Assembly (NCBI GenBank): GCA_026992355.1
Contig: JALXAE010000178.1
Location: 1-53,638 of the forward strand
From: Syntrophobacterales bacterium
GTDB taxonomy: Bacteria > Desulfobacterota > Syntrophobacteria > Syntrophobacterales > Thermodesulforhabdaceae
Direction of reading: 5' to 3'
Length of the DNA stretch: 53,638 bases
Below the pieces are notes generated by a model. It was not told the origin of the DNA. It was given only the letters and a program-made list of their open reading frames with translations, and did no database searches. Shown piece by piece: positions 15,621 through 43,262 of the stretch. Every line of letters begins with the position of its first letter. Positions within the stretch are counted from its first letter, which is position 1. A program made the position numbers and the translations under genes.

Positions 15621-17066
15621 ATGAAAAAACTGGGGCATTTATCATCGCTTTTGTTGTTATGCGGGGTACTATGCATTGCACCACCTGCTACTGCCAAAAT
15701 GGGTACTGGTAAGGTAATAGCCAAGAGTTCAGATGTGGATATAAAGATTTTTGGCAGTATGCATACCTATCCGACCTATGTTTCTAACCCGGACTTCAAC
15801 AAAGGTGACACCAAGTATGACTTTGTCCTTGATGAGAGTGGTTTTCAATCGGAGTACAACATAAGAAATGAAGCTCGACTGGGGTTTTCGGGTGGAGGTG
15901 AAAACTGGCATTTCTTAATGATATTGGAAGCTGATTTCACATACAACAAGCAAAATGGAGATCGCGGAGCTGACAAAACAGATCCTTTAGACAGTGGAAT
16001 GACTGGTGAGGACTTCGGGATAGAAAAATTAGAATTCACGTATAACTTTGGTCCTTTCACTTTGGAAACAGGCTGGCAGACCAAGTTTTTAGATCTTAAA
16101 ACCGGTGGCCTGCTTTATGGAGATGATCATCCATTTATTGGAATCAAAGGTAAATACAACGACATTAGCTGGGAGATTCTCTCTCTCTACATCTTTGATG
16201 AAATAAAGAATCTTGAACACGGAAAGGTCAACGGGCCTCTCGATGCCGATTCTCTGGACTGGAGAGCCTATACTGCAAAGGTGATTGTTCCCTTTCAGGG
16301 TATCAATGTTAGTCCGTTTTATGCTTTCAGCGATAACGCAGCCCATTCTGCCCGAGTTCATTACTTAGGTGCAGAAGCTTATGGTAAGGTGGGAATGGTA
16401 ATTCCAAGGGCTGAATTTGTATACGCCGTTGGAGATCAAGGAAGAGACGTAGGATCTGATTATGACATAAGTGCTTTTGCGGCTTTTGCATCTCTTGAAT
16501 TTGACTTGTCGCCCTATTTCAAGCCATATATTGGTGGTTATTTCATAAGTGGTGACGATGATGCCAATGATAATGACATAGATGCATTTAATCCTATCAC
16601 CAACATTTCCAGATATACTCCAACTTTTGGCATGGAGAATGCCTTCATTTATAAGTATGTCCCTGTACTCGGTTCGCACCTGTACAGTAATGCTCCTGAT
16701 CTGCTAGGCGGAGCGAAAACAGGCTACGGCGGAATTGGTGATACATCCAGTCGAAATAGCCCAGGTCTCGTATCCATAGGCGTTGGTGCCAAAGGAAACT
16801 ATGGTAAATGGTATTATAAGGCTCAATTCCAATATTTCTGGTTTGATGAAACTGGAGCTCTTGAAGATTATTACAACGTTCCAGACATAGACAAAGATAT
16901 GGGTATGGAATTTGATTTGCAGGTCGTCTACAAATTTGGTAAACATTTTTCTGTTGGTGATGTAATCTCCATATTTGATCCCGGTGATGGTATCCAGGAC
17001 ATATATGGGGATGATTATGACGAGACAGCCATCATGAATACAGTTGAGCTCAAATGGCAATTTTAG
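15621..17066 (+). CDS. Putative outer-membrane beta-barrel porin
   Basis: It has a signal peptide (MKKLGHLSSLLLLCGVLCIAPPATA), alternating aromatic/Gly-rich beta-strand-like segments and a C-terminal ...VELKWQF with terminal Phe. GGAGGG RBS. Confidence 0.65.
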   Translation: MKKLGHLSSLLLLCGVLCIAPPATAKMGTGKVIAKSSDVDIKIFGSMHTYPTYVSNPDFNKGDTKYDFVLDESGFQSEYNIRNEARLGFSGGGENWHFLMILEADFTYNKQNGDRGADKTDPLDSGMTGEDFGIEKLEFTYNFGPFTLETGWQTKFLDLKTGGLLYGDDHPFIGIKGKYNDISWEILSLYIFDEIKNLEHGKVNGPLDADSLDWRAYTAKVIVPFQGINVSPFYAFSDNAAHSARVHYLGAEAYGKVGMVIPRAEFVYAVGDQGRDVGSDYDISAFAAFASLEFDLSPYFKPYIGGYFISGDDDANDNDIDAFNPITNISRYTPTFGMENAFIYKYVPVLGSHLYSNAPDLLGGAKTGYGGIGDTSSRNSPGLVSIGVGAKGNYGKWYYKAQFQYFWFDETGALEDYYNVPDIDKDMGMEFDLQVVYKFGKHFSVGDVISIFDPGDGIQDIYGDDYDETAIMNTVELKWQF

Positions 17067-17097
17067 TTACAAAAGTTAATCGGTACTGACTGGTAAA

Positions 17098-17123
17098 CCC
17101 CCTCCACAGCGAGGGGGTTTTTT
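17098..17123 (+). terminator. Rho-independent terminator after the porin gene
   Basis: CCCCCTC-cacagc-GAGGGGG followed by TTTTTT. Confidence 0.7.
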
Positions 17124-17155
17124 ATTAAATGTTGCTCTTCCCTCTGGAGGGCTAT

Positions 17156-18991
17156 ATGAAGCGCACCTTGCTGGTAACAATTATATTATTCTTTGTTTAT
17201 CCCGTAATAGTTCTCGGTAGAGTGACTCCCACATCTTTTTTCACCAATCAATTCTCTACCTTTTTAACAAAACGATTTCCGTCTTCTTATAAAGTAGTAG
17301 GAAAAGTTTCGGAACGTCATGGCTCGAGGCTTGTATTTCCCAAAGGCAACCATGAATTAAGGCGAGGTGACGAGCTTTTAGCTCTCAAATATGAAAAAAA
17401 CGTACCCCTTTATCTACTTCATCAGGCTTCTGTTATTCGAATTGAAGCCATCATGGGCAATAAAATACTAGCTCAGGAAATGGCCGTTATAGAAAGACCC
17501 GCAAAGGTTGGAGATCCTATTGTAATACCATCTTCTCCTGTTGTTTACTTGTATACAAACATTAAAAGAAAGGAGGTTTTCAAGCCCTACACTCAACTAA
17601 TTAAAATGCTCCTTGCAAAAAATTTTGAAGTGGTTGAATTAGGAAAACCAGAATTGAAACCCAAAACCGATAGATATGGAATTTTAATTAAGCTAGAGGG
17701 CGAATCTGGATATTTAGCTTTACGGGTGCAATCCATATATTCCGGTGACACTTTATATTTCGACAGCACATCCTACGCAGGGCCTATCGCAACCGCTGCG
17801 CCATCAGGTGTTACAATCGTTTTACCAGACTGGTCTTCTCTTAGAATCGCCCGCTACGCACAAACTTTCGCATCCCAGGAAGCTATTGGAACAACGCCTA
17901 AACCGTTGCCAGAACCCGGGAAGCAAACAACGCCTAAAGCAACTAAAAGCTTCCTGCGGGTTGGAGAAATCCCAGAAACAAACCAATATAGGCTTAACGA
18001 AAAATTTAAGAGAATGGTAATTGCTGAAATTGACGGAGATAGAAAACCTGATTTTGTCTTTTTAAATGATGATTTCCTGGAAGTTTATAATTTTGAAAAT
18101 GGTGTCTTTCAAAAAACAAGAAGATATGAGCTCTCCGGAGGCCCTTATGTGGCGCTGCATTTACACGCAATGGATATTACGGGAGATGGACAGGATGAAC
18201 TATTCCTGACCTTAGGAAGACAAATAATGCTGGATGATTACCATGACACCATTCTCAGGTCTATGATTCTTACTTTCAAAAATGGAGCCTTTGAGGTTTT
18301 GGACGAAGATCTCCCATATTATCTGCGAGTCATAGAAGATAGGCAAGGCAATCTTGTAGCTCTTGCTCAGAATAAAGGAAATAAATCTCTCTATGATGGA
18401 GACATTATTAGAATTAAATGGAACAATGCTCTAGGAAAAATCATCGAGACTGGTGAGTATGCACCTGCCCATGATGTATATTCAATTTATCAGTTCAACC
18501 TTATACCTGACGACATTGATAGAATTGTCATCCTGGAGCCAACCAATGATTTACAAGTATATTACACACCTACCGAAGAACCGGAAGTTATTTCGGATAA
18601 AAATTTTGGTTTTTATGATGAAATTCCTTTTTTAATTAGCCCCAGGGAAGAAAAATTCATTGGTGGTTTTAACAAAAAATTATCTGAAACTGCTTACGCT
18701 CCAAGAAGATTTGTATTGAAACGTGAATACGACGATCAAATGTTTTTAATTCGCAAGGGCAGAACTAGGGTATCTGTAAGCACTTCTCTGGGCAATGTTT
18801 TAAAAACATCCCAGGGCGAAGATTCTCTCGTTGCAGTAAAATGGCTCAAAGGTCAAATTTTAGAAACATGGCAGAGTGAAAGTTTATCTAAGGATATTAT
18901 AGATTTTGGCTTTGTAAAAATTGGCCAAGAAGACAAAATAGTATTGCTGGTAAGAGATAAGCAAGGTTACGCTATTGAAATAATAAAATAA
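17156..18991 (+). CDS. Secreted or periplasmic hypothetical protein with FG-GAP/VCBS-like repeats
   Basis: The start is set at ATG 17156 (MKRTLLVTIILFFVYPVIVLG, signal-like) with GGAGGG upstream. Segments such as EIDGDRKPDFVFLND and DITGDGQDELFL resemble FG-GAP calcium-binding repeats. There is no other recognisable motif. Confidence 0.55.
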   Translation: MKRTLLVTIILFFVYPVIVLGRVTPTSFFTNQFSTFLTKRFPSSYKVVGKVSERHGSRLVFPKGNHELRRGDELLALKYEKNVPLYLLHQASVIRIEAIMGNKILAQEMAVIERPAKVGDPIVIPSSPVVYLYTNIKRKEVFKPYTQLIKMLLAKNFEVVELGKPELKPKTDRYGILIKLEGESGYLALRVQSIYSGDTLYFDSTSYAGPIATAAPSGVTIVLPDWSSLRIARYAQTFASQEAIGTTPKPLPEPGKQTTPKATKSFLRVGEIPETNQYRLNEKFKRMVIAEIDGDRKPDFVFLNDDFLEVYNFENGVFQKTRRYELSGGPYVALHLHAMDITGDGQDELFLTLGRQIMLDDYHDTILRSMILTFKNGAFEVLDEDLPYYLRVIEDRQGNLVALAQNKGNKSLYDGDIIRIKWNNALGKIIETGEYAPAHDVYSIYQFNLIPDDIDRIVILEPTNDLQVYYTPTEEPEVISDKNFGFYDEIPFLISPREEKFIGGFNKKLSETAYAPRRFVLKREYDDQMFLIRKGRTRVSVSTSLGNVLKTSQGEDSLVAVKWLKGQILETWQSESLSKDIIDFGFVKIGQEDKIVLLVRDKQGYAIEIIK

Positions 18992-19010: not shown

Positions 19011-20987
19011 TCAGTATGCCAGTCTACCTAAAGATCGCATAATTAGGGTAAACCCCATTCCGAGCATGCCCATGATGCCCATTCCGCAGGAAAAACCAGC
19101 AAGGAGGACAGGGGCATATTGTCGCCATTTTATGCCGTATTTCTTAATAAAATAGTGCCTTCCCAGCAAAGCCCCGATTACTTCTAGGAAAATGCCGTGA
19201 GGTGTTGTTTGCCCCAGACCTCTCGTAACACCATAAATCAACATTATTGGAAGATTCAACGCTGCGAGAATCCAGTATGTGACTAAACCCAGCCCTAGTC
19301 CCCAGAACATGTATGAAAGCTTAAAAGCCTGAAAAAAAGGAGAGTTTCCCTCTAACGTAGCGCTTTGTAACAACAACGTATTTAAAGCTTGTAAATGCCA
19401 TAACTCCTGGGCATAGGGATACTGGTTAGAGGGAATGGGGGCAAGTCGCCATAGATATTGCGAAAAAAGCAGACTGGAAATCATAACAACCGGAAAGACA
19501 AATATTTCCGCTTTTATAATGCTTCTAAAGCTTGTTCCTGTGAGCTCTATTTCTCTGAATTTAACGGTAGCCTTTCCGTAATTATGAATAGGAATAGGCG
19601 CATACCATATTCCAATGCCATGATAACCAAAAAACTTCGAGGCCATTATAAAACTTGCTTCTCTTACCATTGGAAGGCTTACAAACTGGCCAGCAACCCC
19701 TTCCATCCTGGCGGATATATAGGAAATAATGGGCGTGTAAATAAATCCGTAAGCCACCAGAAAAATAATGGGAAAACCCGGAACCAAATAATTACAGAGA
19801 ATAATATAAGCTGTAGTAGAGGCTATATATATACCAATGGCTATCCATATATTGAAATCACCTCTTCCAGGTGGAGGCGAAAACAGTTTTTTTAGTTTTT
19901 CTCTAAAAGAAATAGCCTTTGAACTCCGGAACATTGTCATAACGTGAATTATACCTGCTATCGCAATAGCCAGACCAAGTCCGATACCGAAACTCATGTA
20001 AAAGTCAAAATTATTGGCAAAGACCGTGTCCACAGTTTCCATTCCCTTGTGCCAGTGGAACAATATACCATGTTTGTAAAGAATAGGATTTGCTATAAGA
20101 GTTATAATAAAACCGATCAGGCCGCCGATAACTGCCCAGAAGGGTAAAACCATCCCCAGAAAAAGCAGACCCAGATCCAGTTGAATTCCCGTGGCAACTG
20201 CAGGCAAAAAATTTTCCGTATAATGGGTAAGTTCAATCCAGGGAATGGGAAGTATACGTATCGGCTCGGACAAAATCACACCAGAAGCAGAAGGCAGCAA
20301 AACATATAAAGCCCCAAAGGCAAGTCCTATCATCCCACCTATAGAAAAAACTCTCCATCTCCAGCTTGTTTCTTCCCTGTTTGCTGACTCGGTAAGAGCC
20401 ATTGTCCCCAAAGCACCAACAGGTGCCATCGGGAATGGAAGCTTTTCAACATCCGATGTTAATCTGTACAGAGCGTACCCCAATCCAAAGTGATCAACAG
20501 CCTGTATTAATTCAAAGCCAACCATAAGAAGTATAGGAACAAGCCAATCCCGGTGGAAAAAAGACCTTTCAAGATAAGAGACAGAATCTGGAGGCGGGGC
20601 AACCCAATGGGGAATCAGGTGTGTTAAGCCAAGAACTCTGGCTGCTTCAGACTGAACCAAATACTGATTCCACAAAAGACCGGAAAAAGGGGATGAAAGA
20701 GCAGCACCAGCCATGTAATACAAAACAAAAATTTCCTGCTGCTTAAGTCTTGTGTATGCCCGTTTCGCAACTTCTGCAAACAAAATGATCGTAACCCATC
20801 GAGCCGCTGGTCCTATCCCGGTGCCAATTACGAGGTTCAAATACATGGAGCCGGGCATCATTACAAAACCAATAAAAATTGCCCCAATTACCGACTTCCA
20901 GCCAAAACCTTCTTCAAAATGATCAGGAGGTGGGAGTAAATCTCTATATTCTTTGAGTTCTCTATCTTCCTTCACAACAGCCCTCAA
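19011..20987 (-). CDS. 658-aa polytopic membrane protein B of the ABC module (possibly OPT-like or DUF-type transporter)
   Basis: There are more than 12 hydrophobic segments. The N-terminal pattern GAIFIGFVMMPGSMYLNLVIGTGIGPAARWVTIILFAEVAKR is reminiscent of OPT-superfamily N-termini (weak, by eye). A 15-nt gap separates it from the upstream gene. Confidence 0.6.
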   Translation of the reverse strand: MRAVVKEDRELKEYRDLLPPPDHFEEGFGWKSVIGAIFIGFVMMPGSMYLNLVIGTGIGPAARWVTIILFAEVAKRAYTRLKQQEIFVLYYMAGAALSSPFSGLLWNQYLVQSEAARVLGLTHLIPHWVAPPPDSVSYLERSFFHRDWLVPILLMVGFELIQAVDHFGLGYALYRLTSDVEKLPFPMAPVGALGTMALTESANREETSWRWRVFSIGGMIGLAFGALYVLLPSASGVILSEPIRILPIPWIELTHYTENFLPAVATGIQLDLGLLFLGMVLPFWAVIGGLIGFIITLIANPILYKHGILFHWHKGMETVDTVFANNFDFYMSFGIGLGLAIAIAGIIHVMTMFRSSKAISFREKLKKLFSPPPGRGDFNIWIAIGIYIASTTAYIILCNYLVPGFPIIFLVAYGFIYTPIISYISARMEGVAGQFVSLPMVREASFIMASKFFGYHGIGIWYAPIPIHNYGKATVKFREIELTGTSFRSIIKAEIFVFPVVMISSLLFSQYLWRLAPIPSNQYPYAQELWHLQALNTLLLQSATLEGNSPFFQAFKLSYMFWGLGLGLVTYWILAALNLPIMLIYGVTRGLGQTTPHGIFLEVIGALLGRHYFIKKYGIKWRQYAPVLLAGFSCGMGIMGMLGMGFTLIMRSLGRLAY

Positions 20988-21002
20988 AGCATCATTCTTA
21001 AT

Positions 21003-22979
21003 TTATAGAGGAAACACATGGTAGGTCATAGGAACATAAAAGCCCACAATTAACCATGCCACCGCCATTATAGTATCACCAACTATTAACCCAATGAAAA
21101 ACCACCTGACCGTCCTGTATGCATTTATTCCGCCATAATGGACGATAAGTGCATTGCTCAACCACCCAAGAAAAAAAGAGAACCATAAAATTCTCATGGC
21201 TGAGCTGTAAGCCAATAAATATCCAATTGGGTGGAGAGGCCACCACACGAATTGGTAGTATCCAAAGATTAATAAGGAGGTTACAAAAGCCCCAATCCCG
21301 GTAAAAATCATGCTCCATTTTTTGGGTTCTTCCGGATGTTGAAGTAACCTTATGGCACTTTCATGAACTCGAGTAACCGTATCAACAGCCCATGTATCTG
21401 GCAAAGAAAAAATGCCATATTTGTAAGAAAGAACCATCATAGAAATGATGGATATTAAAACAGTACACAACAGAGCCAGCAGTATTCCTGTTACAAATCT
21501 TCTCTTTTCTTTTGCAGATTCAGAAAGAGCGGAAGCATGAAATAATGACGGCATTAAGGATTCTCTAAAATCTACAAAGGCCATTTTCTGGACAACGGCG
21601 CCGATGTATATGGCCGATGTTGAAAATATGTTTGTGGGCAAAAAGGCTAGAAAGCCGTCAGAAGGCGCTGCAGTAAGAGTATAATAAGGCAGCCCTCCCT
21701 GACATATGAGCCTAGCAGATACCAGTTGAATCATAAAACAAACGACCAAAAATGCAGCAGCAACATGAAAACTTATTCCCATAAAAACTGTCCAGGTAAC
21801 TGAGCCCAGAATACCCACAAGAGCAATGCGGAGCGATGTAACGGGATGTAACATTCCGGAATATTCATAATCATAGGACCGTTTTTTAAAGAATGATTTA
21901 AAAGTAATAAGCAGGTGTTCTCTGGCAAGCCATATCAAAAATATTGCAAACACTCCATAAGCCCCTACTGCTTGCATTTCCTCCACTTTGGATATTACGG
22001 GACCGAACGTGGTGCCCAAGGCAGCCTCAGGTATCTTCAGACCGAAAATGCTTAAAAAACCTGGCATCAAGGCTCCAAGAACAAAAAAAAGCCACAGGCT
22101 AAGAGAAACCTGTCGAGTTGTAAGATAAGCAAACCCTATAAAAGCCGGGTAGATGTAGATTTTAGCTTTGTAAAAACCCTTAAGTAATCCTTCCTTGGGA
22201 ACGAAAGGCTGAGCAAGAATTAATGTCGGTATTTGAGGGACGCCCGGGAAAAAATTGTGCAAGCCATTTAAGGTATGCAAGAACACAGGAATGAAAAAAC
22301 CTACAATGAAATAAGGACTTTTCAGGAATCCCCAGAGTGTTCCCTTGGTTGCATGTTCAGTAAACAAAACAGGAACCCTTAGCAGAGGGAAATTCATTCT
22401 TTCGTTTTCTATCCATTGGTGAGAAAAAAGACCAGTGATTCCGAGAACAGTGAGAAATACAAATCCAATTAAAGATAACCAGACTCCCAGAGGTACAATC
22501 CATTTGTCCCAAGGAATGGTTTTAATTATGTCAAAAACACTGGAGGTATATCCTGTTTCAAGACCATATAATGTGGTTCTTATAATGCTTGAGTCAGTGG
22601 GAAAAAGATAAGGCTTTACAGTGCTCATAATCTGCTGGATACCTTCAACTCCTGTCATTTTCATCCAACCGGGAATGACCATGTTTACAATGAATGTTCG
22701 AGCAAAACCGGTATAAGAAAGGGTTGCAGATATTCCTGACATTATCCAGATAAGCAATATCTCACTTCCGGATAAACATAACCGAAGAGAAATATGTCGA
22801 ACTAATGGATTCCAAAGAATGGTAAAGAAAATAAGAAAGAAAAATGCAATTAACGGAAAATGCCCACCGCCCAGAGGGGAATTTTGCCATAGGATGTTAT
22901 TCCATGGAGTTATCCACGCAACCACCGAAGACAATAAGACACTTACAACCAACACGGATATGCGAATAGTACTATTCAC
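21003..22979 (-). CDS. 658-aa polytopic membrane protein A of the ABC module (uncharacterised family)
   Basis: There are more than 12 hydrophobic segments and a C-terminal WWPLHPIGYLL...YGGINAYRTVRWFFIGLIVGD. Its start overlaps the stop of the 1600-aa gene by 8 nt. Confidence 0.6.
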   Translation of the reverse strand: MNSTIRISVLVVSVLLSSVVAWITPWNNILWQNSPLGGGHFPLIAFFFLIFFTILWNPLVRHISLRLCLSGSEILLIWIMSGISATLSYTGFARTFIVNMVIPGWMKMTGVEGIQQIMSTVKPYLFPTDSSIIRTTLYGLETGYTSSVFDIIKTIPWDKWIVPLGVWLSLIGFVFLTVLGITGLFSHQWIENERMNFPLLRVPVLFTEHATKGTLWGFLKSPYFIVGFFIPVFLHTLNGLHNFFPGVPQIPTLILAQPFVPKEGLLKGFYKAKIYIYPAFIGFAYLTTRQVSLSLWLFFVLGALMPGFLSIFGLKIPEAALGTTFGPVISKVEEMQAVGAYGVFAIFLIWLAREHLLITFKSFFKKRSYDYEYSGMLHPVTSLRIALVGILGSVTWTVFMGISFHVAAAFLVVCFMIQLVSARLICQGGLPYYTLTAAPSDGFLAFLPTNIFSTSAIYIGAVVQKMAFVDFRESLMPSLFHASALSESAKEKRRFVTGILLALLCTVLISIISMMVLSYKYGIFSLPDTWAVDTVTRVHESAIRLLQHPEEPKKWSMIFTGIGAFVTSLLIFGYYQFVWWPLHPIGYLLAYSSAMRILWFSFFLGWLSNALIVHYGGINAYRTVRWFFIGLIVGDTIMAVAWLIVGFYVPMTYHVFPL

Positions 22980-25900
22980 CAGAGATTTTCTCCCGCATTC
23001 GTATACTTTCCTTCATTTCGGGGCTCAACGTATGCCACTGCAGTAGCTGTTTTCTAATTGCTCGGACAAAGCTCCTATTGGCTCTATGCCAAGACCTGAC
23101 TTCTCCATGCAGTCGCAACAATCTTAGAGTTATGTGTACGTACCCCGGTTCTTCCAGATCAGGGCAGCAATAGAAATAAACCCGTTCTTTTAAACCGAAA
23201 TCAAACGGTGCCAACCATACACTAGTCTGAATCAAAAAACATTGTGGAAATCTCGTTATTCCTTCTCTGTGGTCTTCTTGTATCTCTGACCAGTCAGCCC
23301 ATCCGGTTTGAACTCCATCAGACATAAATGTTCCATGAGCCACATCCTTGTGAAGGTTTATATAATCGGCCAGGAACAATAACACCGCCACACGATCTGA
23401 CTCAGGAAACAAAAAAGGAAGATCTACCACCAAAACATCACCATCGGGTTCGGGCAAGTCCCAGGTTTTTTCCACATCTGGCATCGCTATATCCACGGCA
23501 ATCCTAGCGGGATAAAGAGAAGCAACGAACACTACTCCAAATACCATGATCATACTTGCAATACTGGATAGTGATGAATAATTGAAAGTTAAAGATGAGA
23601 AGAAGGGAAGATTGCCAAAATAATGGGCCGTAAACTGAGCAATTAAATAACCGGCAACACACGACATAACAGCGAAAGATAAAGCCTCCATGATGAACAG
23701 CATACCAACGTGGTGAGGAGCAAGACCCACGCTTGTATATACGGAAATTTCCTTCTTCCTTTCATGAACCTGTCCTATTAACGTATTCAGGCAAATCAAA
23801 ATGACTATCAATATAGGTATTATAAGATTTGTTACGCCCTGATATCTAACTGTTACGAGGGCACTATGATACCATACTTTTTGATTCTTACCTATGTAGA
23901 AGGAATGGGCATACCACGTCCCCAGCCTCTGAGCAAGAATGTCTATATCGGGGGAGTTTTTCGACTTTAGCACATAAATAGCCTTAATTTTTCCACCAAG
24001 CGCAAGACAGGTTTCAAAAGGAATCAAAACAGTTGACGAAGGCGTAGCATAATAAAAGCGTTCAATAATCGGCAGAATTTCTTCACCCGACTCCATCGCC
24101 TCAACCTCTACCTCAGTTAATTCCTCTTCCGGATGAGCTTCCAAATAGGCAGGTGTAAAGGGTTTTCCATCAAGGTCCCTGAAGGCATTCATCTTTTCAT
24201 CATCAAAAATCCCAACAACATTAAATGGCATACCGAAAAGAAACACCTTTGGTGTAACAGCACTGACAGGATTCAATGTGATCCTCAGCTTTTTAGCAAG
24301 ACTTTGTGGAAGCAGGATTTCGTTACAGCACGATTTTTGAAGCCACCTACCCTGCACCAGAATTTTCTTCAACCGTTTTGGTGGATTTGAGCCAACACCC
24401 ATTACTCCCTCTAAGCCAACCGCTTTACCCCCGGAGTTTTCAATAAAGGTGATGATTCTTTTGTAAGGATCAACTCTTTCAATCCAGCTCTTTGAAAATA
24501 TGTCAGCATCCCCCCAAAAAATTGACTTTATTTCCCTCAAAGCAAAATCCGTGAGGGGTATCCACAAGGGATGATGAAGCAAAATCCCGTCATAAGGGGG
24601 ATTATCACCTATCTGGGTGTCCGTAACTTTTTGAAAGCTTTTTACACTGGTAAAGGACATTATCGTAAAAGTCAATATTATCAAGGTGATACAGGTAAGA
24701 GCAGTGCGTAATTTTCGCCTGTAAAGATTGGAAACCCCAATCGCAAGCCCCGCTCCAATTGCCTGGGAGGTTCGGATCTGTCCTATAGGTGCAACCCCTG
24801 TTTGGTACCACTTTGACTTCCTAAACGTTTCCATTTCGTGTTCAAAACGACCAAGGATAATGGATCCAACAAGGGTTGAAAGTCCAACAATAAAGAATGC
24901 AATAATAACCATGGTGGGACTATAAGTTAGTCTGAAAGCCGGGTGGATTGCGCGGATAATTAGTATCGTTATAATAAGAATTATAAAAAACGCAGCAATC
25001 TGCTTATAAATGTTTGTGAAGCAAAACAAATATCGTTCCATGCAATAGGCAAAAGGAACAAACAGAGCAATGAAAAAGATAACTCCGAAGAGAACGTCTT
25101 TCTGGGTGGATTCTATGTCATGATATATTTTGTTAAGATAGGCCCAGGATGAGATAATTTGTCTCCAGAAACCGCTATACTCACTCCTTGACAAGCTTTC
25201 TTCGGCTAAATTTATATTGTTTGAAGCTTCTTTGAAAAGTGATTCTATGTAATGATTTCTTATTCCAGTTAGCTTCAAATCGTTTAATCTAATTCCTATG
25301 ATATCCAAAGTATTTCTGGCAGAAATCAGGGGACCTAAAGAAATAACAGGCGGTTTTCCAATTAAAAAACCTTTTCCAGTTGGCTTTTTTGTTGAAGAAT
25401 TGAGAAGTAGAACATCTTTCGTAATGAGTGAATCAGCAAGTATAAGCTTAAAACGGGTACCGGGTTCCAAAAATACAGAAATGACTATTGTGTCCTTTCC
25501 ATCAATCCTGCTGTACCAGTATTTCATAGGGGTTGCATCTGTTCTGGCGTCCAAGAGCTTCACTTTAGTTACATAAGACAGTTTCCTGGGGTGAAATACT
25601 CCCAAGATATCTGTTTGCTCACACGGAAACATAATAAGCGTGGTATAAGCCGTATTGCCCTTTATTTTTATACGGTATCTATTCTTCCCAGTCTCTCGCT
25701 TATCGGTAGCCCACTTGATTCTCCCCGTCTTCTCGTCAATTCCATAGGGTTCCAGTATGAGCTTCTGGTATGAAACCTTTTTATTAGCAACCCCGTGCAG
25801 GTAAAAACGTCCATCCATGAAGACCATGCTTCTAAAAACATTCTCTCCCTGAAGGGCATTGACTATAGTTCCTGGTGCCGGTCTATCTGGAAAGAGTTCT

Positions 25901-27774
25901 CCCTGACGGATGAATTGAGCCGTCCCTTCCAGCGAAGCAATTCCTCTTATACCTTGCTTACAGGCTGAAACTATTGCAATGTCATCAAAAAGTTGTTTCA
26001 AAAATGGCATAAGAAAACGGTTTATTTTGACAAAGTTTACAGAATTCCAGTGTTCCCAGCTATCTTCGGGAGTCCCCCAGTAGGGGGGTGTGACTATCCT
26101 TGAAGAGAGACCAACGGCAGGTAAACCTCCGATAGATGTGACATCGCAGCAAGCACAATGTCCAGTTAACGGGCCAACAGGAGCTGAAGCTGCTTTCCCA
26201 CCACTGGGTTCCAGTAGATTTTCAACCTGAAAATTTTTAGCAACATCTTTTGCAATCCTTGACGCAATGTTCACGAAACGCCCAATTCTATAATATTTGG
26301 TAACCCGTTCCCTAAAAGGGAAGGAAGAACCCCTGTCATAAAACCTTAAAAATGGCGAATAGCTGGAAATATCTAAATCCATTACGAGAACTGGCTCAAA
26401 AATTCTTACTTCCGATCTAACCCTCATTGCCGATCTAATTACAGTCCATCTCTTTTTGAGCTCAGTCAGATATTCTTTTTCTCTTTCCAGTAACGAACCA
26501 AAAAAAGGAATTATCAGGCTAAATTCATCAGATTGCACTTCTTTAAAGGAATGTCTCCACGATATTATCCTGTATCGTCTGGCAAGCTCTGATTTAGCAG
26601 GATCAAAGGATTCATAAAACTGACTTCGTGTAAGATCATCAGCCTTGTTTTTTACACTGGCAAGCACAATAGGCCACAAGAATTGGTTGGCTTCGTCATT
26701 TTTTTTGAGAAAATCTATTATTAATCTATCCTTCTTTTTCAGGATTTTTTTCAGGAGCTTAATACGCTTGGTAGTAAGTTTAATCTGTTTTTTGAGATAT
26801 CTCTTTTCCTTGCGCAAATTTTTTGACGAAGAGGTAATAGCCCATACAAATTCTCTCATACCTGCAGCAGCGTAACCACTTCCTGCTGTGGCCACAAACA
26901 TAACGGATCTTCTGGGAGGATTCTTCGAAAGATATCTTGCCAGATTGAGTAACGTTAGAAGGGAAGTCGCTTCGTCCACTCCAGGAGACGCGTCCGGAAT
27001 GATCGATGTAGCATCGTAACGGGCTTCAACTATTACTAATTGCTCCCTCAAAGTTGGATCGGAACCTTCTATAAAACCGTAACAATTCCGAAGAAGAACA
27101 TTCTCCCAAAGGGCTCTGGATATTATCTTTCCCTCCAATCTTCTTTCCGTTATCAGCCTTCTTACAACGGCAGACTCACCAGGCGGCAACCAATACCGGG
27201 GAAATGCAACTGGTGCCGATGAAAACTTGCCAGTATATTCACCCGACGGATACCCTCTCCAACCCATGTATACAACGGCCTTTGCTCCATGCATGGCTGC
27301 ATAAAGCCAGGCCAAACCGGAATCAAGATCGAGAAAAACTATGCTGTCCTTAATTTTTCTATGATCAAAATCTTTCCACTCACCCTTGTCCAGGTAAATA
27401 CATGGACCAGTCAAACCTTCTGAGCTTGTATTCGAAAGATAAACCATGTTAGGCGTCCAAATTTTCAAGGGAAAACGTGACCCATTCAAATAGAGATAAG
27501 CTTGCTTAACTCTTGGTAAGGGAAGAAAAAAATATTGAACACCTACATTGGAGAGACCAATGCTTTCGAACTGATGCTTAAGATAATCAGCGATTTCGTG
27601 AGACGCCTTGGATCCTGCGGATCGGTTTTCATAACTCAATATATGCTGCAGGTCAGCAGGATTTAAAATCTCAGGACCTAATGGCTCAGGGGGAATTTCA
27701 GTCGCAGACAAAAATCGCGTACAAATAAAAAGAAACAAAACAATTACACAACACCAAAGAAGAGCGCGATTCAT
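22972..27774 (-). CDS. 1600-aa fusion protein: signal/anchor, degenerate M28 peptidase-like domain with PA insert and Lys-rich coiled coil, beta-rich region, 3 TM, FtsX/MacB-type permease (4 TM with ~270-aa ectodomain), 169-aa cytoplasmic tail
   Basis: PA-like segment: GPCIYLDKGEWKDFDHRKIKDSIVFLDL...GAKAVVYM. M28-like blocks: LVIVEARYDA, PGVDEATSLLTLLNLARYL, VMFVATAGSGYAAAGMREF, VMDLDISS, CCDVTSIGGLPAVGL and YWGTPEDSWEHWN. FtsX signature: NLYRRKLRTALTCITLIILTFTIMSF ... HERKKEISVYTSVGLAPHHVGMLFIMEALSF...SLYPARIAVDI. An ATGA overlap links it to the upstream ATPase gene. Confidence 0.75.
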   Translation of the reverse strand: MNRALLWCCVIVLFLFICTRFLSATEIPPEPLGPEILNPADLQHILSYENRSAGSKASHEIADYLKHQFESIGLSNVGVQYFFLPLPRVKQAYLYLNGSRFPLKIWTPNMVYLSNTSSEGLTGPCIYLDKGEWKDFDHRKIKDSIVFLDLDSGLAWLYAAMHGAKAVVYMGWRGYPSGEYTGKFSSAPVAFPRYWLPPGESAVVRRLITERRLEGKIISRALWENVLLRNCYGFIEGSDPTLREQLVIVEARYDATSIIPDASPGVDEATSLLTLLNLARYLSKNPPRRSVMFVATAGSGYAAAGMREFVWAITSSSKNLRKEKRYLKKQIKLTTKRIKLLKKILKKKDRLIIDFLKKNDEANQFLWPIVLASVKNKADDLTRSQFYESFDPAKSELARRYRIISWRHSFKEVQSDEFSLIIPFFGSLLEREKEYLTELKKRWTVIRSAMRVRSEVRIFEPVLVMDLDISSYSPFLRFYDRGSSFPFRERVTKYYRIGRFVNIASRIAKDVAKNFQVENLLEPSGGKAASAPVGPLTGHCACCDVTSIGGLPAVGLSSRIVTPPYWGTPEDSWEHWNSVNFVKINRFLMPFLKQLFDDIAIVSACKQGIRGIASLEGTAQFIRQGELFPDRPAPGTIVNALQGENVFRSMVFMDGRFYLHGVANKKVSYQKLILEPYGIDEKTGRIKWATDKRETGKNRYRIKIKGNTAYTTLIMFPCEQTDILGVFHPRKLSYVTKVKLLDARTDATPMKYWYSRIDGKDTIVISVFLEPGTRFKLILADSLITKDVLLLNSSTKKPTGKGFLIGKPPVISLGPLISARNTLDIIGIRLNDLKLTGIRNHYIESLFKEASNNINLAEESLSRSEYSGFWRQIISSWAYLNKIYHDIESTQKDVLFGVIFFIALFVPFAYCMERYLFCFTNIYKQIAAFFIILIITILIIRAIHPAFRLTYSPTMVIIAFFIVGLSTLVGSIILGRFEHEMETFRKSKWYQTGVAPIGQIRTSQAIGAGLAIGVSNLYRRKLRTALTCITLIILTFTIMSFTSVKSFQKVTDTQIGDNPPYDGILLHHPLWIPLTDFALREIKSIFWGDADIFSKSWIERVDPYKRIITFIENSGGKAVGLEGVMGVGSNPPKRLKKILVQGRWLQKSCCNEILLPQSLAKKLRITLNPVSAVTPKVFLFGMPFNVVGIFDDEKMNAFRDLDGKPFTPAYLEAHPEEELTEVEVEAMESGEEILPIIERFYYATPSSTVLIPFETCLALGGKIKAIYVLKSKNSPDIDILAQRLGTWYAHSFYIGKNQKVWYHSALVTVRYQGVTNLIIPILIVILICLNTLIGQVHERKKEISVYTSVGLAPHHVGMLFIMEALSFAVMSCVAGYLIAQFTAHYFGNLPFFSSLTFNYSSLSSIASMIMVFGVVFVASLYPARIAVDIAMPDVEKTWDLPEPDGDVLVVDLPFLFPESDRVAVLLFLADYINLHKDVAHGTFMSDGVQTGWADWSEIQEDHREGITRFPQCFLIQTSVWLAPFDFGLKERVYFYCCPDLEEPGYVHITLRLLRLHGEVRSWHRANRSFVRAIRKQLLQWHTLSPEMKESIRMREKISGE

Positions 27775-28499
27775 GCAACCTCACCAACAGACACTTTCAA
27801 TTTGTCTCGCGACTCAATTCGCTCTATCATACCGTCTCTTATCCAAACGACTCTGTCAGATACATCTATCATTTTTATGTCGTGAGTGGCCGATATAATT
27901 GTGACACCTCGTTCCCTGGACAAACTTTTTAAAAGCTTTATAATTTCCGCACCAGTCTTCAAGTCCAGATTGCCTGTGGGTTCATCGGCAAGAATAATGG
28001 CAGGATCATTCGCAAGCGCCCTTGCAATGGCCACACGCTGTTGCTGTCCACCGGAAAGCTCTGAAGGTCTATGCCACGCTCTCTCTTTTAATCCCACAAG
28101 TTCCAGAAGCATCATGCCCTTTTCCATATATTCATCTCTATGTACTCCAGCAAAAATCATGGGAAGCGTTACATTTTCTATGGCTGTCATCGCTTGAATA
28201 AGATTGAAGGTCTGGAAAATATATCCAATCTTGTGACATCGGAGCCACGCCAATTCGTAAGCATCCAGTTGCGAAACATCTACCTCATCGATGAATACCC
28301 GACCTTCTGATGGCTTGTCCAATGCACCTATCATATTAAACAAAGTGGTCTTACCCGATCCCGAAGGTCCCATTATGGAAATATATTCTCCCTGTGCGAT
28401 TTCCATCGAAATGCCTTTAAGAGCATCTACTCGATTATTTCCCATAACAAATGTCTTACGGACATTGTTCAATCGGACTACGAAATGTTCCCTTTTCAT
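27771..28499 (-). CDS. ABC transporter ATP-binding protein, MacB/LolD/FtsE-like
   Basis: Walker [11 protein letters not shown]-loop IFQTFNL, signature [15 protein letters not shown], Walker [14 protein letters not shown] and H-loop ATHD. Confidence 0.92.
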
Positions 28500-28513
28500 T
28501 TTTCAACCCTGAA

Positions 28514-28654
28514 TCAATGAGTATCCCTAGATGCCTCAACTATTTCAAAGCATTCCAGACACAGAAACACCTGGTCAAAAGGTACAGCTTCGTCATTCCT
28601 TAATTCCTTACCACAGCTAGCACATTTTTTTCTTACGGATTCCTCCCTTTTCAT
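28514..28654 (-). CDS. 46-aa zinc-ribbon-like mini-protein (CxxC-x17-CxxC), not in the ORF track
   Basis: Translation is MKREESVRKKCASCGKELRNDEAVPFDQVFLCLECFEIVEASRDTH. Its ATG (28654-28652) overlaps the TGA (28653-28651) of the upstream FtsX gene as ATGA. GAGG lies 8 nt upstream, and the ORF ends 14 nt before the ATPase start. Confidence 0.5.
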   Translation of the reverse strand: MKREESVRKKCASCGKELRNDEAVPFDQVFLCLECFEIVEASRDTH

Positions 28655-29328
28655 ATCTCATGCCTCAAAGCTATAGCGGGTTCCATGCGCGCAGCCATCA
28701 CACAGGGATACAAAACGCCTAAAAGCGATAGAATCACAGAAATTATAAAGGAAACCCCAACGTTTTTCAGCATACTGACTACACTTATAAAGAAAAAAAC
28801 CTTTAAGCCCAGTTTAAATGCAAGAGAAATAAGGGCCAGCATTATCCCTAAAAAAGCTCCAGCAAGACTACCCGCAGTTCCCTGATAAAGGGATTCACAA
28901 AGGAAAATTTTTACTATGAAGGTATCCAACGCTCCCAGGCACTTCATTGTTCCTATTTCCCTAAACCTTTCTGTAACAGCCATTATTTGGGCATTGGTAA
29001 TCCCAACAAGACATACCAAGATAGCTAACATCAAAAGCCATATATCTTTGGCAGAGGCCCCAAAAACTCTGTGTCCACTTGAAAGACCCAATGGCTCGTA
29101 ACCGGCCAGTATTATCTTATGTCTGAGAATGTCACTGGCATGAGGCCAAATCGCATTCAGGATATCGAATGTCATAAGTGTATAAGAAAAAAAAGTTATG
29201 GCTAGCATGAGCGACAAAGTAGTTATAGCAACTCTCGTCCAGCGGATTTTTACAGACTGCCAGGCTATGCGCAGCACTTGATGCCATGGGAGAACAATCT
29301 GACGACTCAACTTACCGTGGTCAACCAT
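28651..29328 (-). CDS. Minimal FtsX-family ABC permease (4 TM, no large extracytoplasmic domain)
   Basis: The N-terminus IAWQSVKIRWTRVAITTLSLMLAITFF is the FtsX TM1 motif. FREIGTMKCLGALDTFIVKIFLCESL...VLYPCVMAARMEPAIALRHE is the FtsX domain. Only ~45 aa separate TM1 from TM2. Confidence 0.8.
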   Translation of the reverse strand: MVDHGKLSRQIVLPWHQVLRIAWQSVKIRWTRVAITTLSLMLAITFFSYTLMTFDILNAIWPHASDILRHKIILAGYEPLGLSSGHRVFGASAKDIWLLMLAILVCLVGITNAQIMAVTERFREIGTMKCLGALDTFIVKIFLCESLYQGTAGSLAGAFLGIMLALISLAFKLGLKVFFFISVVSMLKNVGVSFIISVILSLLGVLYPCVMAARMEPAIALRHEI

Positions 29329-29334: not shown

Positions 29335-30477
29335 TTAACTCCACCGCTTGTTGAAATAGACTTCAACTATTTCCTTTGTTCTTCTAGCTCCATCAATATT
29401 TACACCAACTTTGAAAGCTTCCTTTTTCCCTGCAAGCTCACGGACTCCTAAAGCAATCTTTCGTGGATCAAAACTATCCAGCACCTTGACAACTCCCATT
29501 TTTTCAAACCTTGTGGCCCTCAATCTCTGCTCTCTATTTTGAGAAAAAGGAAAAACTAAACCGGGAGTCCTGGTTGCCAGCAAATCCATCATTGTATTAT
29601 AACCAGCCATGCTCACAGACAAATGAGCACTAACTAATTCTTTAATAAAATCGAGAGAAAACTCTTTGACATGGACATTCGGTCTACCTTGTGCAAGATC
29701 TTTTATTCTTTTCAAATCAGGGTCAGGAATAAATATACCGGGAAATATTTCAATTCTGTATTCGTTACCTAACAGGTCAGACGCCAGTATGCTGGCTTCA
29801 AGAAGCTCAGAACCAACCCGACCCCCACCATGGCTAACAACTATTCTACGGTAATTCTCAGGAAGTGCTACACCGCCTTTTCCGGAGCATTTTCTTACAA
29901 CATAGCCAGTATACTCTACTGGAACCTTTACTTCAGCCAAGCTTCCAAAGGTTTCATCAAGAGTAATCACGCTCGGATCAGAATGGACAAGAACAAGATC
30001 AAAAAAACTGTTCAAAGTGTCTACGACTCTTCTCTCATACTTCTTTTGGTCTGATTTTTCCACCAGAATATCCCGTACGCTACAAACTACCATCGTATCA
30101 GATTTTGCTCTGGCATACTCAAGAACAGGAATTAGCTCAAACCTGAACTTCTTTCTTCCAAAAGGAAAGAGTTCTATTATAAAAATGTCTGGGTTAAAAT
30201 TAATAAATAAACTCAAAAGCTTCCTTTTTCTGCTCTGCTTTATTTTCTCAAGCAAAGATTGCTCTACCGTAAACGATTTGAACTCCCCGTCCATTTCTAG
30301 AGGCTCAAGAGAAAAAAATTTGATGTGTGTGAAAGCATCGATTTTATCCGTAATCTTTTTACCCCCTTCCACGAAAAGAACTTCATGAGGAAAAAAGGCT
30401 TTGGCTATCTCAAGACTTCTGAAAAAATGCCCTACCCCGAGAACATGCTGACAGTATTGTAAGATCTTCATAGTCAC
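29335..30477 (-). CDS. Glycosyltransferase, MurG/GT28-like fold (COG4671-type predicted glycosyltransferase)
   Basis: The N-terminus ILQYCQHVLGVGHFFRSLEIAKAF is a Gly-rich loop paralogous to ORF 33945-35156 (YSHDTYGLGHIRRTLAIAKSV). The C-terminal half contains SMAGYNTMMDL. The track start is GTG 30477; an alternative ATG is at 30471. Confidence 0.65.
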   Translation of the reverse strand: MTMKILQYCQHVLGVGHFFRSLEIAKAFFPHEVLFVEGGKKITDKIDAFTHIKFFSLEPLEMDGEFKSFTVEQSLLEKIKQSRKRKLLSLFINFNPDIFIIELFPFGRKKFRFELIPVLEYARAKSDTMVVCSVRDILVEKSDQKKYERRVVDTLNSFFDLVLVHSDPSVITLDETFGSLAEVKVPVEYTGYVVRKCSGKGGVALPENYRRIVVSHGGGRVGSELLEASILASDLLGNEYRIEIFPGIFIPDPDLKRIKDLAQGRPNVHVKEFSLDFIKELVSAHLSVSMAGYNTMMDLLATRTPGLVFPFSQNREQRLRATRFEKMGVVKVLDSFDPRKIALGVRELAGKKEAFKVGVNIDGARRTKEIVEVYFNKRWS

Positions 30478-31088
30478 TATTTTTTACAATAAAGAGCTAC
30501 CGTTCTTTTTCCGGAAACATCAGGATCCAATAGGGAAAAACCGTCATAGGAAGGAAGAATGCCAGAAAAACCGTAAACCATATAGTAACTCCCTATCTTC
30601 GCCTTATCCCTCAACATTTCGGCGTAAACGTCATGAAGTGTTATATAGGTGTAAAAAATATCAACATCTTGCATGGTGACACCCGTTTTTTCTTCTATAG
30701 TCCTATGAGTGTTCTCCGATAAGGAATCCCCAAGTAGTACGCATAAACCTGAAGGGAGAGGTAAGAGATTGTTTTGCCGGAGGAAATGCTCTATCTGTTT
30801 TTTGGAATATAGGTATTCATCGTATATAAACTCTTCAACTTCAATCCCTATCGCCCATCGGCAAAAATAAGACATCAACATGCAGACTCGCCCATCTCCA
30901 CACCCAAGATCAAGGAATATCGTGCTATCGGGAACAACTATTCTCCTGGACACAAGTTCATTTACCACATCAAATAGAATGCCTAAATCACTCGTTTTCC
31001 TGTAACCGCTATTTCCAACATGCCCCTTTTTACGTTTATCAAAATACGATGCTATTGTTTTAGCAGTCTTTAACCTTAAATCTTTCAT
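30477..31088 (-). CDS. Class I SAM-dependent methyltransferase
   Basis: Motif I is IFLDLGCGDGRV, and the size (203 aa) fits a Rossmann-type methyltransferase. Confidence 0.65.
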   Translation of the reverse strand: MKDLRLKTAKTIASYFDKRKKGHVGNSGYRKTSDLGILFDVVNELVSRRIVVPDSTIFLDLGCGDGRVCMLMSYFCRWAIGIEVEEFIYDEYLYSKKQIEHFLRQNNLLPLPSGLCVLLGDSLSENTHRTIEEKTGVTMQDVDIFYTYITLHDVYAEMLRDKAKIGSYYMVYGFSGILPSYDGFSLLDPDVSGKRTVALYCKK

Positions 31089-31590
31089 GATGAAGCTTTT
31101 CTAAAAATTTCAAAATCTTCTCATGTAATAAAAATGTCAAATGAATTTCTTCGCCATACACCGACTGAAGCTTGATAACTTTTGCCTGACCTAAATGCTT
31201 ATACAATCGTTCACAAAGATAATTGACGCATATCGTATGTCTCAGCCCCAAGACACACCCTCTCTCTCCAAGAAAATAGCAACCTGACGGGTCAAAGCGA
31301 TTTCCTGGTAATTTAACACCCAAGAGTAAATTGGCCAAAAGTATTGCTACATCATAATAGTTTTCTATTCCCTTTCCACAGCAGCTACCACCTTCCTCTG
31401 TGTCACACTTCATGCACACACTATCAATTCCAAATTCACGGGATATTTGCTGGCTTCTTTCTGCGGCATCAATTGCCCTTAATAGAAGGTCTCCTGCAAA
31501 ATTTTTTAATTCATCTTCATGGAGCATAAAAATGTTTTCCGCTGACTTTATCGCCTCTTCAATGTAGTTTGTAGACAAATCAGAAGACAT
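31060..31590 (-). CDS. Cysteine-cluster protein (YkgJ/UPF0153-like putative Fe-S or Zn domain)
   Basis: CMKCDTEEGGSCCGKG (CxxC...CC) plus CYFLGERGC...CVNYLC. Function unknown. Confidence 0.5.
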   Translation of the reverse strand: MSSDLSTNYIEEAIKSAENIFMLHEDELKNFAGDLLLRAIDAAERSQQISREFGIDSVCMKCDTEEGGSCCGKGIENYYDVAILLANLLLGVKLPGNRFDPSGCYFLGERGCVLGLRHTICVNYLCERLYKHLGQAKVIKLQSVYGEEIHLTFLLHEKILKFLEKLHHERFKVKDC

Positions 31591-35156: not shown

Positions 35157-35173
35157 ATTGTATTACTCCGGCA

Positions 35174-36031
35174 TTAAACATCCTTATCCAACATGGACAA
35201 GATTAAATCCTTGCGTTCCGGACGCAGAGACAGAATTTTCCTTGCCTCTTCGGGGCTAGCAATTTCTCGTCCTATCTCTTTGGCTATTTTTACTACCTTT
35301 TCCACTAGAGCCGGATTAGATGCAAGGGAACCATCGGGCATATAAAGATTATCTTCCAGGCCTACTCGAACATGCCCGCCCATGACAATTGCCGCAACAG
35401 CCATGGGTATCTCCATCCTTCCTATTCCGGCAACAGACCATGTTGAGCCTGGGGGAATAAGATCGACCAGAAACTGTAAATGTTTTACAGAAGCAGGCAT
35501 GGACCCGGGAGCACCAAGAACAAAGTCAAAGTGAAAAGGCGGATGAATCCACCCTTTTTTGTGTAAATACATGGCATTATTTATCATGCCCGCCTCAAAG
35601 ACTTCAATTTCTGGTTTAACACCTGTTTCGTTAAAGACCTTTGCGAGATATTCAAGAAACTGAGGGGGATTCTCATAAACTATACCGGGAAGATTGTTAG
35701 AACCAGTGGTAAAAGATCCCATTTCAGGACATAGTCTTATAGGTTTGGCCCTGGCTTCCCAGTCCCTTCCAGCACGCCCTCCAGTAGACAGCTGAATGAT
35801 AATCTCTGGAGCCACTTCTTTTATCTTGCGAACATTTTCCTTGAATACATTTATATCAAGAGTTGGTTTCTGTTCCTTATCGCGTGCATGAACATGGAAC
35901 ATCACAGCTCCAGCATCTGCACAGCGTCTTACATCCCTTGCTATCTCATCTGGAGTAACTGGAAGATTGGGGTTCATCTCCTTTGTGGGGACATTCCCCG
36001 TAAGTGCCACTGTAATTACGAGCTTGTCCAT
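35174..36031 (-). CDS. Beta-keto acid cleavage enzyme (BKACE / 3-keto-5-aminohexanoate cleavage enzyme family, DUF849)
   Basis: MDKLVITVALTGNVPTKEMNPNLPVTPDEIARDVRRCADAGAVMFHVHARD is the family N-terminus. ATG 36031 has GAGGAG 4 nt upstream; the track start at 36043 is a TTG. Confidence 0.8.
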   Translation of the reverse strand: MDKLVITVALTGNVPTKEMNPNLPVTPDEIARDVRRCADAGAVMFHVHARDKEQKPTLDINVFKENVRKIKEVAPEIIIQLSTGGRAGRDWEARAKPIRLCPEMGSFTTGSNNLPGIVYENPPQFLEYLAKVFNETGVKPEIEVFEAGMINNAMYLHKKGWIHPPFHFDFVLGAPGSMPASVKHLQFLVDLIPPGSTWSVAGIGRMEIPMAVAAIVMGGHVRVGLEDNLYMPDGSLASNPALVEKVVKIAKEIGREIASPEEARKILSLRPERKDLILSMLDKDV

Positions 36032-43260: not shown

Positions 43261-43262
43261 GA

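Follow-up and report, generated by a model that had tools for sequence, protein, structure and literature searches.

A conserved five-gene locus that combines an FtsX-type ABC system bearing a peptidase-like ectodomain with two OPT-like polytopic membrane proteins

Contig JALXAE010000178.1 of a Syntrophobacterales bacterium (assembly GCA_026992355.1) was analyzed over positions 1 to 53,638, a stretch of 53,638 nucleotides that is called the window here. At 19011-29328 the window carries six minus-strand genes, which are designated g1 to g6 in the order of transcription. Judged by gene content across genomes, the true unit is a five-gene core (g1, g3, g4, g5, and g6). The core encodes a bare FtsX-type permease (g1), an ATP-binding cassette (ABC) ATPase (g3), a giant protein in which an apparently inactive peptidase-like ectodomain is joined to a second FtsX-type permease (g4), and two OPT-like polytopic proteins (g5 and g6). 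The reading put forward here is that the region is one clade's version of a widespread, uncharacterized inner-membrane module of five core proteins, in which an ABC mechanotransducer is coupled to OPT-type proteins and acts on a peptide-like ligand. This reading is given about an even chance of being correct. No paper dealing with the module, with its DUF families, or with its locus tags came up in full-text searches of the literature, and no solved structure covering the module was found. The combination of an FtsX-type ABC complex, an inactive peptidase-like ectodomain, and an OPT-related pair was found described nowhere.

Genome searches were made with g6, since an alignment of the giant protein was unusable as a query for want of conserved stretches. 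Relatives of g6 are present in at least 567 species genomes, and clustering at 90% identity yields 4,790 or more clusters of them. Synteny was assessed in 47 species loci whose sequence extends 9 kb or more upstream of g6. Upstream of g6, g5 was present in 44 of these loci, g3 in 41, g4 in 40, and g1 in 38; all four accompanied g6 in 38 of the 47, and the order g1-g3-g4-g5-g6 was kept in each of these 38. Carriers include Syntrophobacter fumaroxidans (chromosome record CP000478) and Desulfopila sp. IMCC35008 (complete genome), and Thermodesulforhabdus norvegica and Desulfacinum hydrothermale are further cultured carriers. Lentisphaeria, Phycisphaera, Kiritimatiellia, and Sumerlaeota hold the same gene set in permuted order, and in these versions the stop codon of the giant gene often overlaps the start of g6. 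The permuted versions of the PVC (Planctomycetes, Verrucomicrobia, Chlamydiae) type usually hold a pair of distinct ATPase genes, in keeping with an asymmetric permease pair. In the loci examined, nearly every member of the giant family is matched by one of this g6 clade, and vice versa. Another lineage (L003:1-9829 and L004) has a trio of giant gene, g5, and g6 with no small FtsX or ATPase gene nearby; the trio is preceded by a second DUF6785 gene and by genes for a 1000-aa CarboxypepD_reg protein, an 838-aa protein, and a PorV-like outer-membrane protein.

Sequence conservation is uneven within the core. Identity to orthologs is 60-87% for g3 and 46-89% for g6 (73-89% within Desulfobacterota, 46-48% in PVC bacteria), compared with 35-59% for g1, 27-60% for g4, and 24-61% for g5. 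The ATPase and g6, the latter being the most conserved membrane component of the module, are about twice as well conserved as the other three proteins, and this difference suggests that they form a constrained functional core.

The first-pass annotation, a model's reading of the sequence alone, had described a six-gene module of unprecedented composition with two dedicated polytopic partners. The partners are borne out by synteny across phyla and the co-conservation by the colinear loci, but five genes rather than six are co-conserved. The composition has no characterized counterpart in the literature found, but it recurs in hundreds of sequenced species. The gene outside the core is g2, which encodes a zinc-ribbon-like CxxC...CxxC mini-protein whose matches to zinc-ribbon families are sub-threshold in Pfam and NCBIfam. 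The Cys pairs and a C-terminal IVE(A/S)SRDTH are kept in T. norvegica (locus L001) and in a metagenomic relative (L090), so that g2 is present in three lineages of the window's own clade. It is missing from the other 43 of the 44 loci having both g1 and g3, L001 being the sole carrier among these 44. From this distribution g2 is a real gene and a clade-specific accessory. It had also been considered as a core subunit or precursor peptide and was rejected as core on account of its restriction to the clade.

The six open reading frames (ORFs) and their translations lie where the first-pass annotation placed them, and its tight junctions were read again from the sequence. The g1/g2 and g3/g4 junctions are ATGA overlaps, g2 and g3 are 14 nt apart, and g4 overlaps g5 by 8 nt (GTGAATAG). 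The gap of 15 nt between g5 and g6 holds for g6 as called. Homologs of g6 all start at the position of the GTG at 20975, which is preceded by GAGGG, so g6 is probably a protein of 654 aa and the gap would therefore be 27 nt. Tight packing extends upstream of the module: the stop codon of a GT28-like glycosyltransferase gene sits 6 nt before g1, and the co-directional string of overlapping or near-touching genes reaches back to about 38127. Base composition is even over the whole region, and scans of the region for consensus promoters and terminators performed no better than on shuffled sequence.

Its domain content places the ABC engine in the type VII ABC superfamily, in which ATP hydrolysis moves periplasmic domains and no substrate is carried through the dimer. 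The translated g3 has an intact Walker A motif (GPSGSGKT), signature (LSGGQQQR), Walker B motif (ILADEPT), and H-loop (ATHD) and matches Pfam ABC_tran at E 1.6e-34. Its top NCBIfam matches are MacB, LolD, DarD, DevA, and FtsE at 210-227 bits, all under the equivalog cut-offs (LolD 225 vs 308; FtsE 210 vs 265; MacB 227 vs 966). These matches place g3 as an ABC ATPase of the MacB/LolD/FtsE subgroup, in line with the earlier assignment to a MacB/LolD type. The permease g1 has four hydrophobic segments by hydropathy and matches Pfam FtsX (PF02687) at E 7.7e-14 (52.2 bits, cut-off 25.5). A loop of about 45 residues joins its first two transmembrane (TM) segments, where FtsX relatives carry a periplasmic domain. 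Its best NCBIfam permease matches are lolCE and LolE, again below the equivalog cut-offs (lolCE 54 bits vs 362; FtsX 24 vs 225-255). Neither the permease nor the ATPase of the module reaches any of the NCBIfam equivalog cut-offs of Lol, MacB, and FtsEX.

The second permease belongs to g4. Residues 1319-1426 of g4 match Pfam FtsX at E 7.8e-13 (49.0 bits, cut-off 25.5), the FtsX module as a whole aligns to the g1 family by hhalign (Prob 97.6), and its PDB sequence matches are MacB (E 3e-5), YtrF, and LolC. The MacB_PCD domain was found in homologs P0007 and P0018 and in a fragment from L006 and not in the window's own g4, whose periplasmic domain at this point is about 270 aa. With its ectodomain of 870 aa in addition, g4 bears out the description of one bare and one hugely decorated permease. 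The anchor, ectodomain, and three extra TM helices of g4 resemble FtsX topology, and distant g4 homologs gave partial phmmer matches to TM3-4 of g1. The suggestion that g4 is a duplicated FtsX permease (ADOP/BceB-like) was unsupported, as profile comparison and Pfam find one FtsX module only. The three-TM segment has residues that are invariant across the family (F900, F908, E913, R914, H944, P945, F947). The C-terminal domain of about 175 aa likewise has invariant P, F, G, W, and R positions, and Pfam and PDB sequence searches with it gave no relatives. The giant gene reads as two to five separate ORFs in the metagenome-assembled genome (MAG) loci L006, L023, L036, L043, and L058; some of these contigs look long-read, and a real split and a frameshift error are both possible.

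Among the known systems, LolCDE is likewise encoded by an operon with a single LolD-type ATPase gene and two unlike FtsX-type permease genes. By analogy, two ATPases with one of each permease and mechanotransmission on the periplasmic side would be expected for the module. However, LolC and LolE both have periplasmic domains whereas g1 has none, and LolCDE has no M28/PA ectodomain, extra TM helices, C-terminal cytoplasmic domain, or OPT-like partners. The likeness to MacB rests in the FtsX module of g4 and in the MacB_PCD of its homologs, and the pairing of g1 with g4 recalls the two unequal halves of BceB. Unlike MacB and BceAB, the ATPase of the module is not fused to a permease, the asymmetry is split over two genes, and no MacA/TolC-like gene is conserved nearby. 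In addition, the decoration of g4 is a dead peptidase of about 870 aa and not a Porter/Sabre or BceB-type domain alone.

The ectodomain had been proposed to be a built-in pseudo-peptidase, and its fold and residues agree with this. The AlphaFold2 (AF2) model of the ectodomain is of high confidence (predicted local distance difference test [pLDDT] 89, predicted TM-score [pTM] 0.89). It contains a PA domain and an M28-like fold with a helical insertion of about 140 residues (about 317-456), followed by a beta-sandwich and a three-helix stalk into the membrane. The best Foldseek matches of the model are PA/M28 aminopeptidases, transferrin receptor, and glutamate carboxypeptidase II (GCPII), with E values down to 3e-19. 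The ectodomain family profile matches PDB entry 2ek8 at E 3e-24, along with nicalin, nicastrin, and transferrin receptor. Pfam Peptidase_M28 matches g4 in part (residues 232-298, 22.8 bits vs a cut-off of 21.3), and Pfam detects the PA domain in g4 homologs. In all 19 family members aligned to active enzymes, R, Y, P, F, N, or M stands in place of the first zinc-ligand His, and SG, GH, or similar in place of the Glu-Glu pair, which supplies the catalytic base and a zinc ligand. The last zinc-ligand His is lost in the window's g4 and across the family, as in transferrin receptor and nicastrin; this position was judged from the alignment against what we take to be the canonical M28 motif. Since the family as a whole lacks both the first zinc-ligand His and the Glu-Glu pair, the ectodomain is, on its sequence, a catalytically dead pseudo-peptidase. 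Nicastrin, nicalin, and transferrin receptor similarly combine a PA domain and an M28 fold without metal-binding or catalytic residues, as a receptor or lid on a membrane complex. However, they are eukaryotic single-pass proteins, whereas g4 is bacterial, is fused to FtsX, and has the helical insertion and beta-sandwich. The ectodomain family comprises 356 clusters at 50% identity with E values of 1e-30 or below, mostly of 1,400-1,900 residues. This size comes from an exhaustive search; a word-indexed search with g4 gave 20 clusters only and missed the S. fumaroxidans ortholog.

The DUF6785/DUF6784 and OPT families had been guessed in advance. Hidden Markov model (HMM) searches support the former for g5, which matches Pfam DUF6785 (PF20581; E 7.8e-130, 434 bits) and DUF6784 (PF20580; E 1.2e-31, 109 bits), and both models were matched by 27 of 27 sampled orthologs. 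Support for the latter, for g6, comes from fold and ortholog. The window's g6 has no Pfam or NCBIfam match, and the Pfam OPT model (PF03169) was silent even at E 10. Its ortholog P0221 (47% identical) matches this model at E 5.9e-12 (45.5 bits, cut-off 25.8), precomputed PF03169 matches exist for many orthologs, and close relatives are named 'peptide transporter' or 'OPT/YSL family transporter' in public sources. The AF2 model of g6 (pLDDT 80) superposes on barley YS1 in Foldseek (E 3.8e-10, TM-score 0.63-0.68); YS1 entries are the only confident matches, the next ones having TM-scores of about 0.1. From this model g6 is assigned the OPT/YSL fold. A recent paralogous origin of g5 and g6 was rejected, as BLASTP finds nothing and a first hhalign comparison was non-significant. 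Richer family profiles of the two gave an in-register alignment of 155 columns (Prob 63%, E 6.8e-5), and g5 is probably a distant relative in the OPT superfamily. Searches of PDB with the g5 and g6 sequences matched nothing. In comparison with the OPT/YSL proteins (barley YS1 and the fungal and plant OPTs), g6 is close in fold and g5 aligns weakly, but identity between g6 and YS1 is about 14%. Also, known OPTs act alone, whereas g5 and g6 are an unequal pair in an operon with an ABC system.

In the proposed mechanism, two g3 ATPases would lie under an asymmetric FtsX pair of the bare g1 and the giant g4, a plausible heterodimer. ATP hydrolysis would move the periplasmic parts of g4, and substrate would not be pumped through the ABC dimer. 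The stalk and the MacB-type domain would pass this motion to the dead PA/M28 domain, which would act as a binding receptor for a peptide-like ligand. Inactive M28/PA domains act as receptors in nicastrin, nicalin, and transferrin receptor. The ligand may be an oligopeptide, a peptide conjugate, or a chelate, and it would cross the membrane via the OPT-fold g6 together with g5. A peptide-like ligand is suggested because of the OPT family and fold and the source name 'peptide transporter', because the binding domain derives from an aminopeptidase, because a PqqD-like (peptide-binding) partner is present in many lineages, and because genes for MR_MLE proteins and M42/M24 peptidases adjoin the module in two PVC phyla. 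The characterized OPT/YSL proteins import oligopeptides, glutathione, and metal chelates in a proton-coupled manner. Given the coupled model, there is a slight lean to periplasmic capture followed by uptake over export. A stronger form of the model is a tentative possibility: the type VII ABC engine may physically gate or energize the OPT-fold carrier with the dead-peptidase ectodomain as substrate receptor, in effect an ATP-dependent OPT system and a hybrid transporter of a new class. Such coupling would account for the ATPase and g6 being conserved more tightly than any other part.

Several points weigh against the coupled reading. We know of no type VII ABC system with a partner of the secondary-transporter type and of no OPT protein that needs an ATPase. 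Contact between the ABC part and the OPT-like proteins is a presumption of the model, and no fusion of the giant protein with g3, g5, or g6 was found among 148 diverse giant homologs. The g6 gene, with or without g5, lies apart from the ABC genes in about 8 of the 47 loci; exceptional loci have unrelated genes upstream (TamB/BamA, an arginase-family gene, Hyp genes). The relation of g5 to the OPT proteins is at the level of a suggestion. The unusually high conservation of g6 would be odd for a nutrient importer, and a cytoplasmic PqqD-like partner and glycosyltransferase neighbors would fit the export of a cytoplasmic product better than uptake.

The last of these points leads to the alternative that survives best, which is nevertheless judged unlikely: the module may be an export or extraction machine for a glycoconjugate or modified peptide made in the cytoplasm. 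The product would come from the neighboring glycosyltransferases or, in other lineages, from the pair of a PqqD-like protein and a protein of about 300 aa; g5 and g6 would take it across the inner membrane, and the ABC part would pull it off toward the outer envelope in a handover as in LolCDE and MacB. Characterized type VII ABC systems (LolCDE, MacB, FtsEX, BceAB) do act on the periplasmic side. The glycosyltransferase block had already led to the proposal that the module handles a glycoconjugate, and in Desulfobacterota the link is conserved. A GT28-like homolog lies upstream of g1 in 10 of the 15 loci with enough flank, across three Desulfobacterota orders, and overlaps g1 in L001 and L090. 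Several loci have a DUF2334-like gene between the two, and glycosyltransferase fusions lie downstream of g6 in Syntrophobacterales. However, the five loci without the upstream gene include L002, L003, and L004, which are not from Desulfobacterota, the module loci of PVC bacteria and Sumerlaeota have no GT28-like neighbor, and the types of glycosyltransferase vary between lineages. By gene content, the glycosyltransferase link is restricted to Desulfobacterota.

The PqqD-like protein has a different distribution. In Desulfobacterales, Desulfobulbales, PVC bacteria, and Sumerlaeota, the module is accompanied by genes for a family-less protein of about 300 aa and, after it, a PqqD-like protein; in a Kiritimatiellia genome the two are fused as one protein of 452 aa. 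In Desulfobacterales a gene for a lipoprotein-like protein of 207 aa precedes the pair. None of these three genes was found in the window or in the Syntrophobacterales loci L001, L005, and L009. PqqD-like proteins are cytoplasmic peptide chaperones in pathways for ribosomally synthesized and post-translationally modified peptides (RiPPs), and their presence favors export. Conversely, no precursor-peptide gene was seen to be conserved at the loci examined, and no outer-membrane or adaptor gene of the MacA/TolC type is conserved in their neighborhoods. Characterized OPT/YSL proteins are importers, and none is known to us to export.

A second alternative, regarded as improbable, is a regulator similar to FtsEX-EnvC, in which the dead M28 domain and the helical insertion would control a periplasmic enzyme whose target is the cell wall or proteins, with g5 and g6 taking up the released peptides. 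EnvC is a coiled coil with a dead LytM domain under FtsEX, and ATP-driven motion switches on a separate hydrolase. The ectodomain of g4 follows the same logic, as it joins a dead peptidase fold to a helical insertion. FtsEX-EnvC and FtsEX-PcsB likewise combine a type VII engine with a periplasmic helical (coiled-coil) part and an inactive peptidase fold, and the MR_MLE and M42/M24 peptidase genes beside the module in PVC loci also speak for this alternative. However, the element in the module is fused to the permease and is of the M28/PA fold, not LytM or CHAP, and we know of no M28 fold that does cell-wall work. No hydrolase gene is conserved with the module in the neighborhoods of the loci examined, the locus has no link to division genes, and the module's scores fall well short of the cut-offs of the FtsX and FtsE equivalogs in NCBIfam.

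It is just as improbable that an ordinary MacB-type efflux or resistance pump (g1, g3, g4) merely neighbors ordinary, uncoupled OPT-type peptide importers (g5, g6). The families of both halves are known to work alone in other settings, and the separated loci and the lack of fusions are in keeping with this, but the set stays together through permuted orders across at least four phyla, stop and start codons frequently overlap between the giant gene and g5 or g6, and the giant family and the g6 clade are nearly always found together.

If the coupled reading is true, an obligate partnership of a type VII ABC system with OPT proteins would amount to a new design of transport machine; what is known of Lol, MacB, FtsEX, and BceAB is that they transmit mechanical force to partners in the periplasm. 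It would also provide the first functional handle on bacterial OPT proteins, on DUF6785/DUF6784, and on the 'M28/FtsX' giants of 1,400-1,900 aa. Sulfate reducers, syntrophs, and PVC bacteria of anoxic carbon cycling commonly carry the module and the usual model organisms lack it, which is probably why it has gone unstudied. The cultured carriers make it experimentally testable. Coordinates of the genes, of the segments of g4, and of the conserved neighbors are given in Table 1.

Table 1. Genes of the module, segments of g4, and conserved neighboring genes (window coordinates unless a locus is named)
Feature	Coordinates	Strand	Length or residues	Description or basis
g1	28651-29328	minus	225 aa	
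g2	28514-28654	minus	46 aa	
g3	27771-28499	minus	242 aa	
g4	22972-27774	minus	1600 aa	
g5	21003-22979	minus	658 aa	
g6	19011-20987	minus	658 aa	length as called
g4, N-terminal membrane anchor		minus	residues 4-22	hydropathy and model
g4, periplasmic ectodomain	25096-27708	minus	residues 23-893	hydropathy and AF2 model
g4, three extra TM helices linking ectodomain to cytoplasmic side	24853-25095	minus	residues 894-974	hydropathy
g4, short cytoplasmic linker		minus	residues 975-1025	hydropathy and model
g4, MacB-type FtsX module	23515-24699	minus	residues 1026-1420	TM1, periplasmic domain of ~270 aa, TM2-4
g4, cytoplasmic C-terminal domain	22975-23514	minus	residues 1421-1600	family conservation
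GT28-like (MurG/MJ1255-type) glycosyltransferase	29335-30477	minus		Pfam Glyco_tran_28_C E 9.5e-7; NCBIfam matches weak
~300-aa and PqqD-like pair	L060:11618-13647 and equivalents; L002:17207-18465; L087:12045-13380; L088:12003-13283; L089:16275-17633			

The genes upstream of g1 in the window (29335-39320, minus strand) begin with the GT28-like gene, followed by genes for two small family-less proteins (203 and 176 aa) and two GT4 genes. Farther upstream come another GT28-like gene and genes for a BKACE enzyme (3-keto-5-aminohexanoate cleavage-type), a TRAP permease of fused DctM type, and a binding protein of the NMT1_3/TAXI type. A 14-gene string made up of the TRAP permease, BKACE, the four glycosyltransferases, the two genes without known family, and the module is syntenic only within the window's own clade, in T. 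norvegica and the metagenomic relative.

Other neighbors are specific to particular lineages. In Syntrophobacterales, L009 (12008-13309) and 14 other loci have, directly downstream of g6, a gene for a TIGR04282-TIGR04283 fusion (Pfam DUF2064 and GT2). Both of these families are named 'arsenosugar biosynthesis glycosyltransferase', and the window has no counterpart of the fusion. In Desulfobacterales, L060 (13759-15265) and about 17-20 other loci have a conserved block on the opposite strand downstream of the PqqD-like gene. Encoded in the block are a 110-aa protein that was judged STAS-like by eye, a HATPase_c_2 protein resembling RsbW, a cNMP-binding protein, and a larger protein (about 860 aa) with a match to the g3 ATPase; the block may be a partner-switching regulatory set. 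Genes for an MR_MLE (enolase-superfamily) protein and an M42 peptidase adjoin the module in L002 (1-1105, Lentisphaeria) and L087 (55-2434, Phycisphaera), and L087 also has an M24 peptidase gene downstream of the module. The MR_MLE family includes dipeptide epimerases.

Two sets of plus-strand genes flank the minus-strand string in the window. Genes for a 481-aa protein without a Pfam match and a 620-aa FG-GAP-repeat protein (15621-18991) converge on the g6 end and are not conserved beside the module in other genomes. At 39638-45277, an SBP_bac_5 binding-protein gene (39638-41257) is followed by four ORFs of 303-336 aa. This block, of which the binding protein alone was scanned, may be an Opp/Dpp-type ABC importer, in which case the organism would already have conventional peptide uptake.

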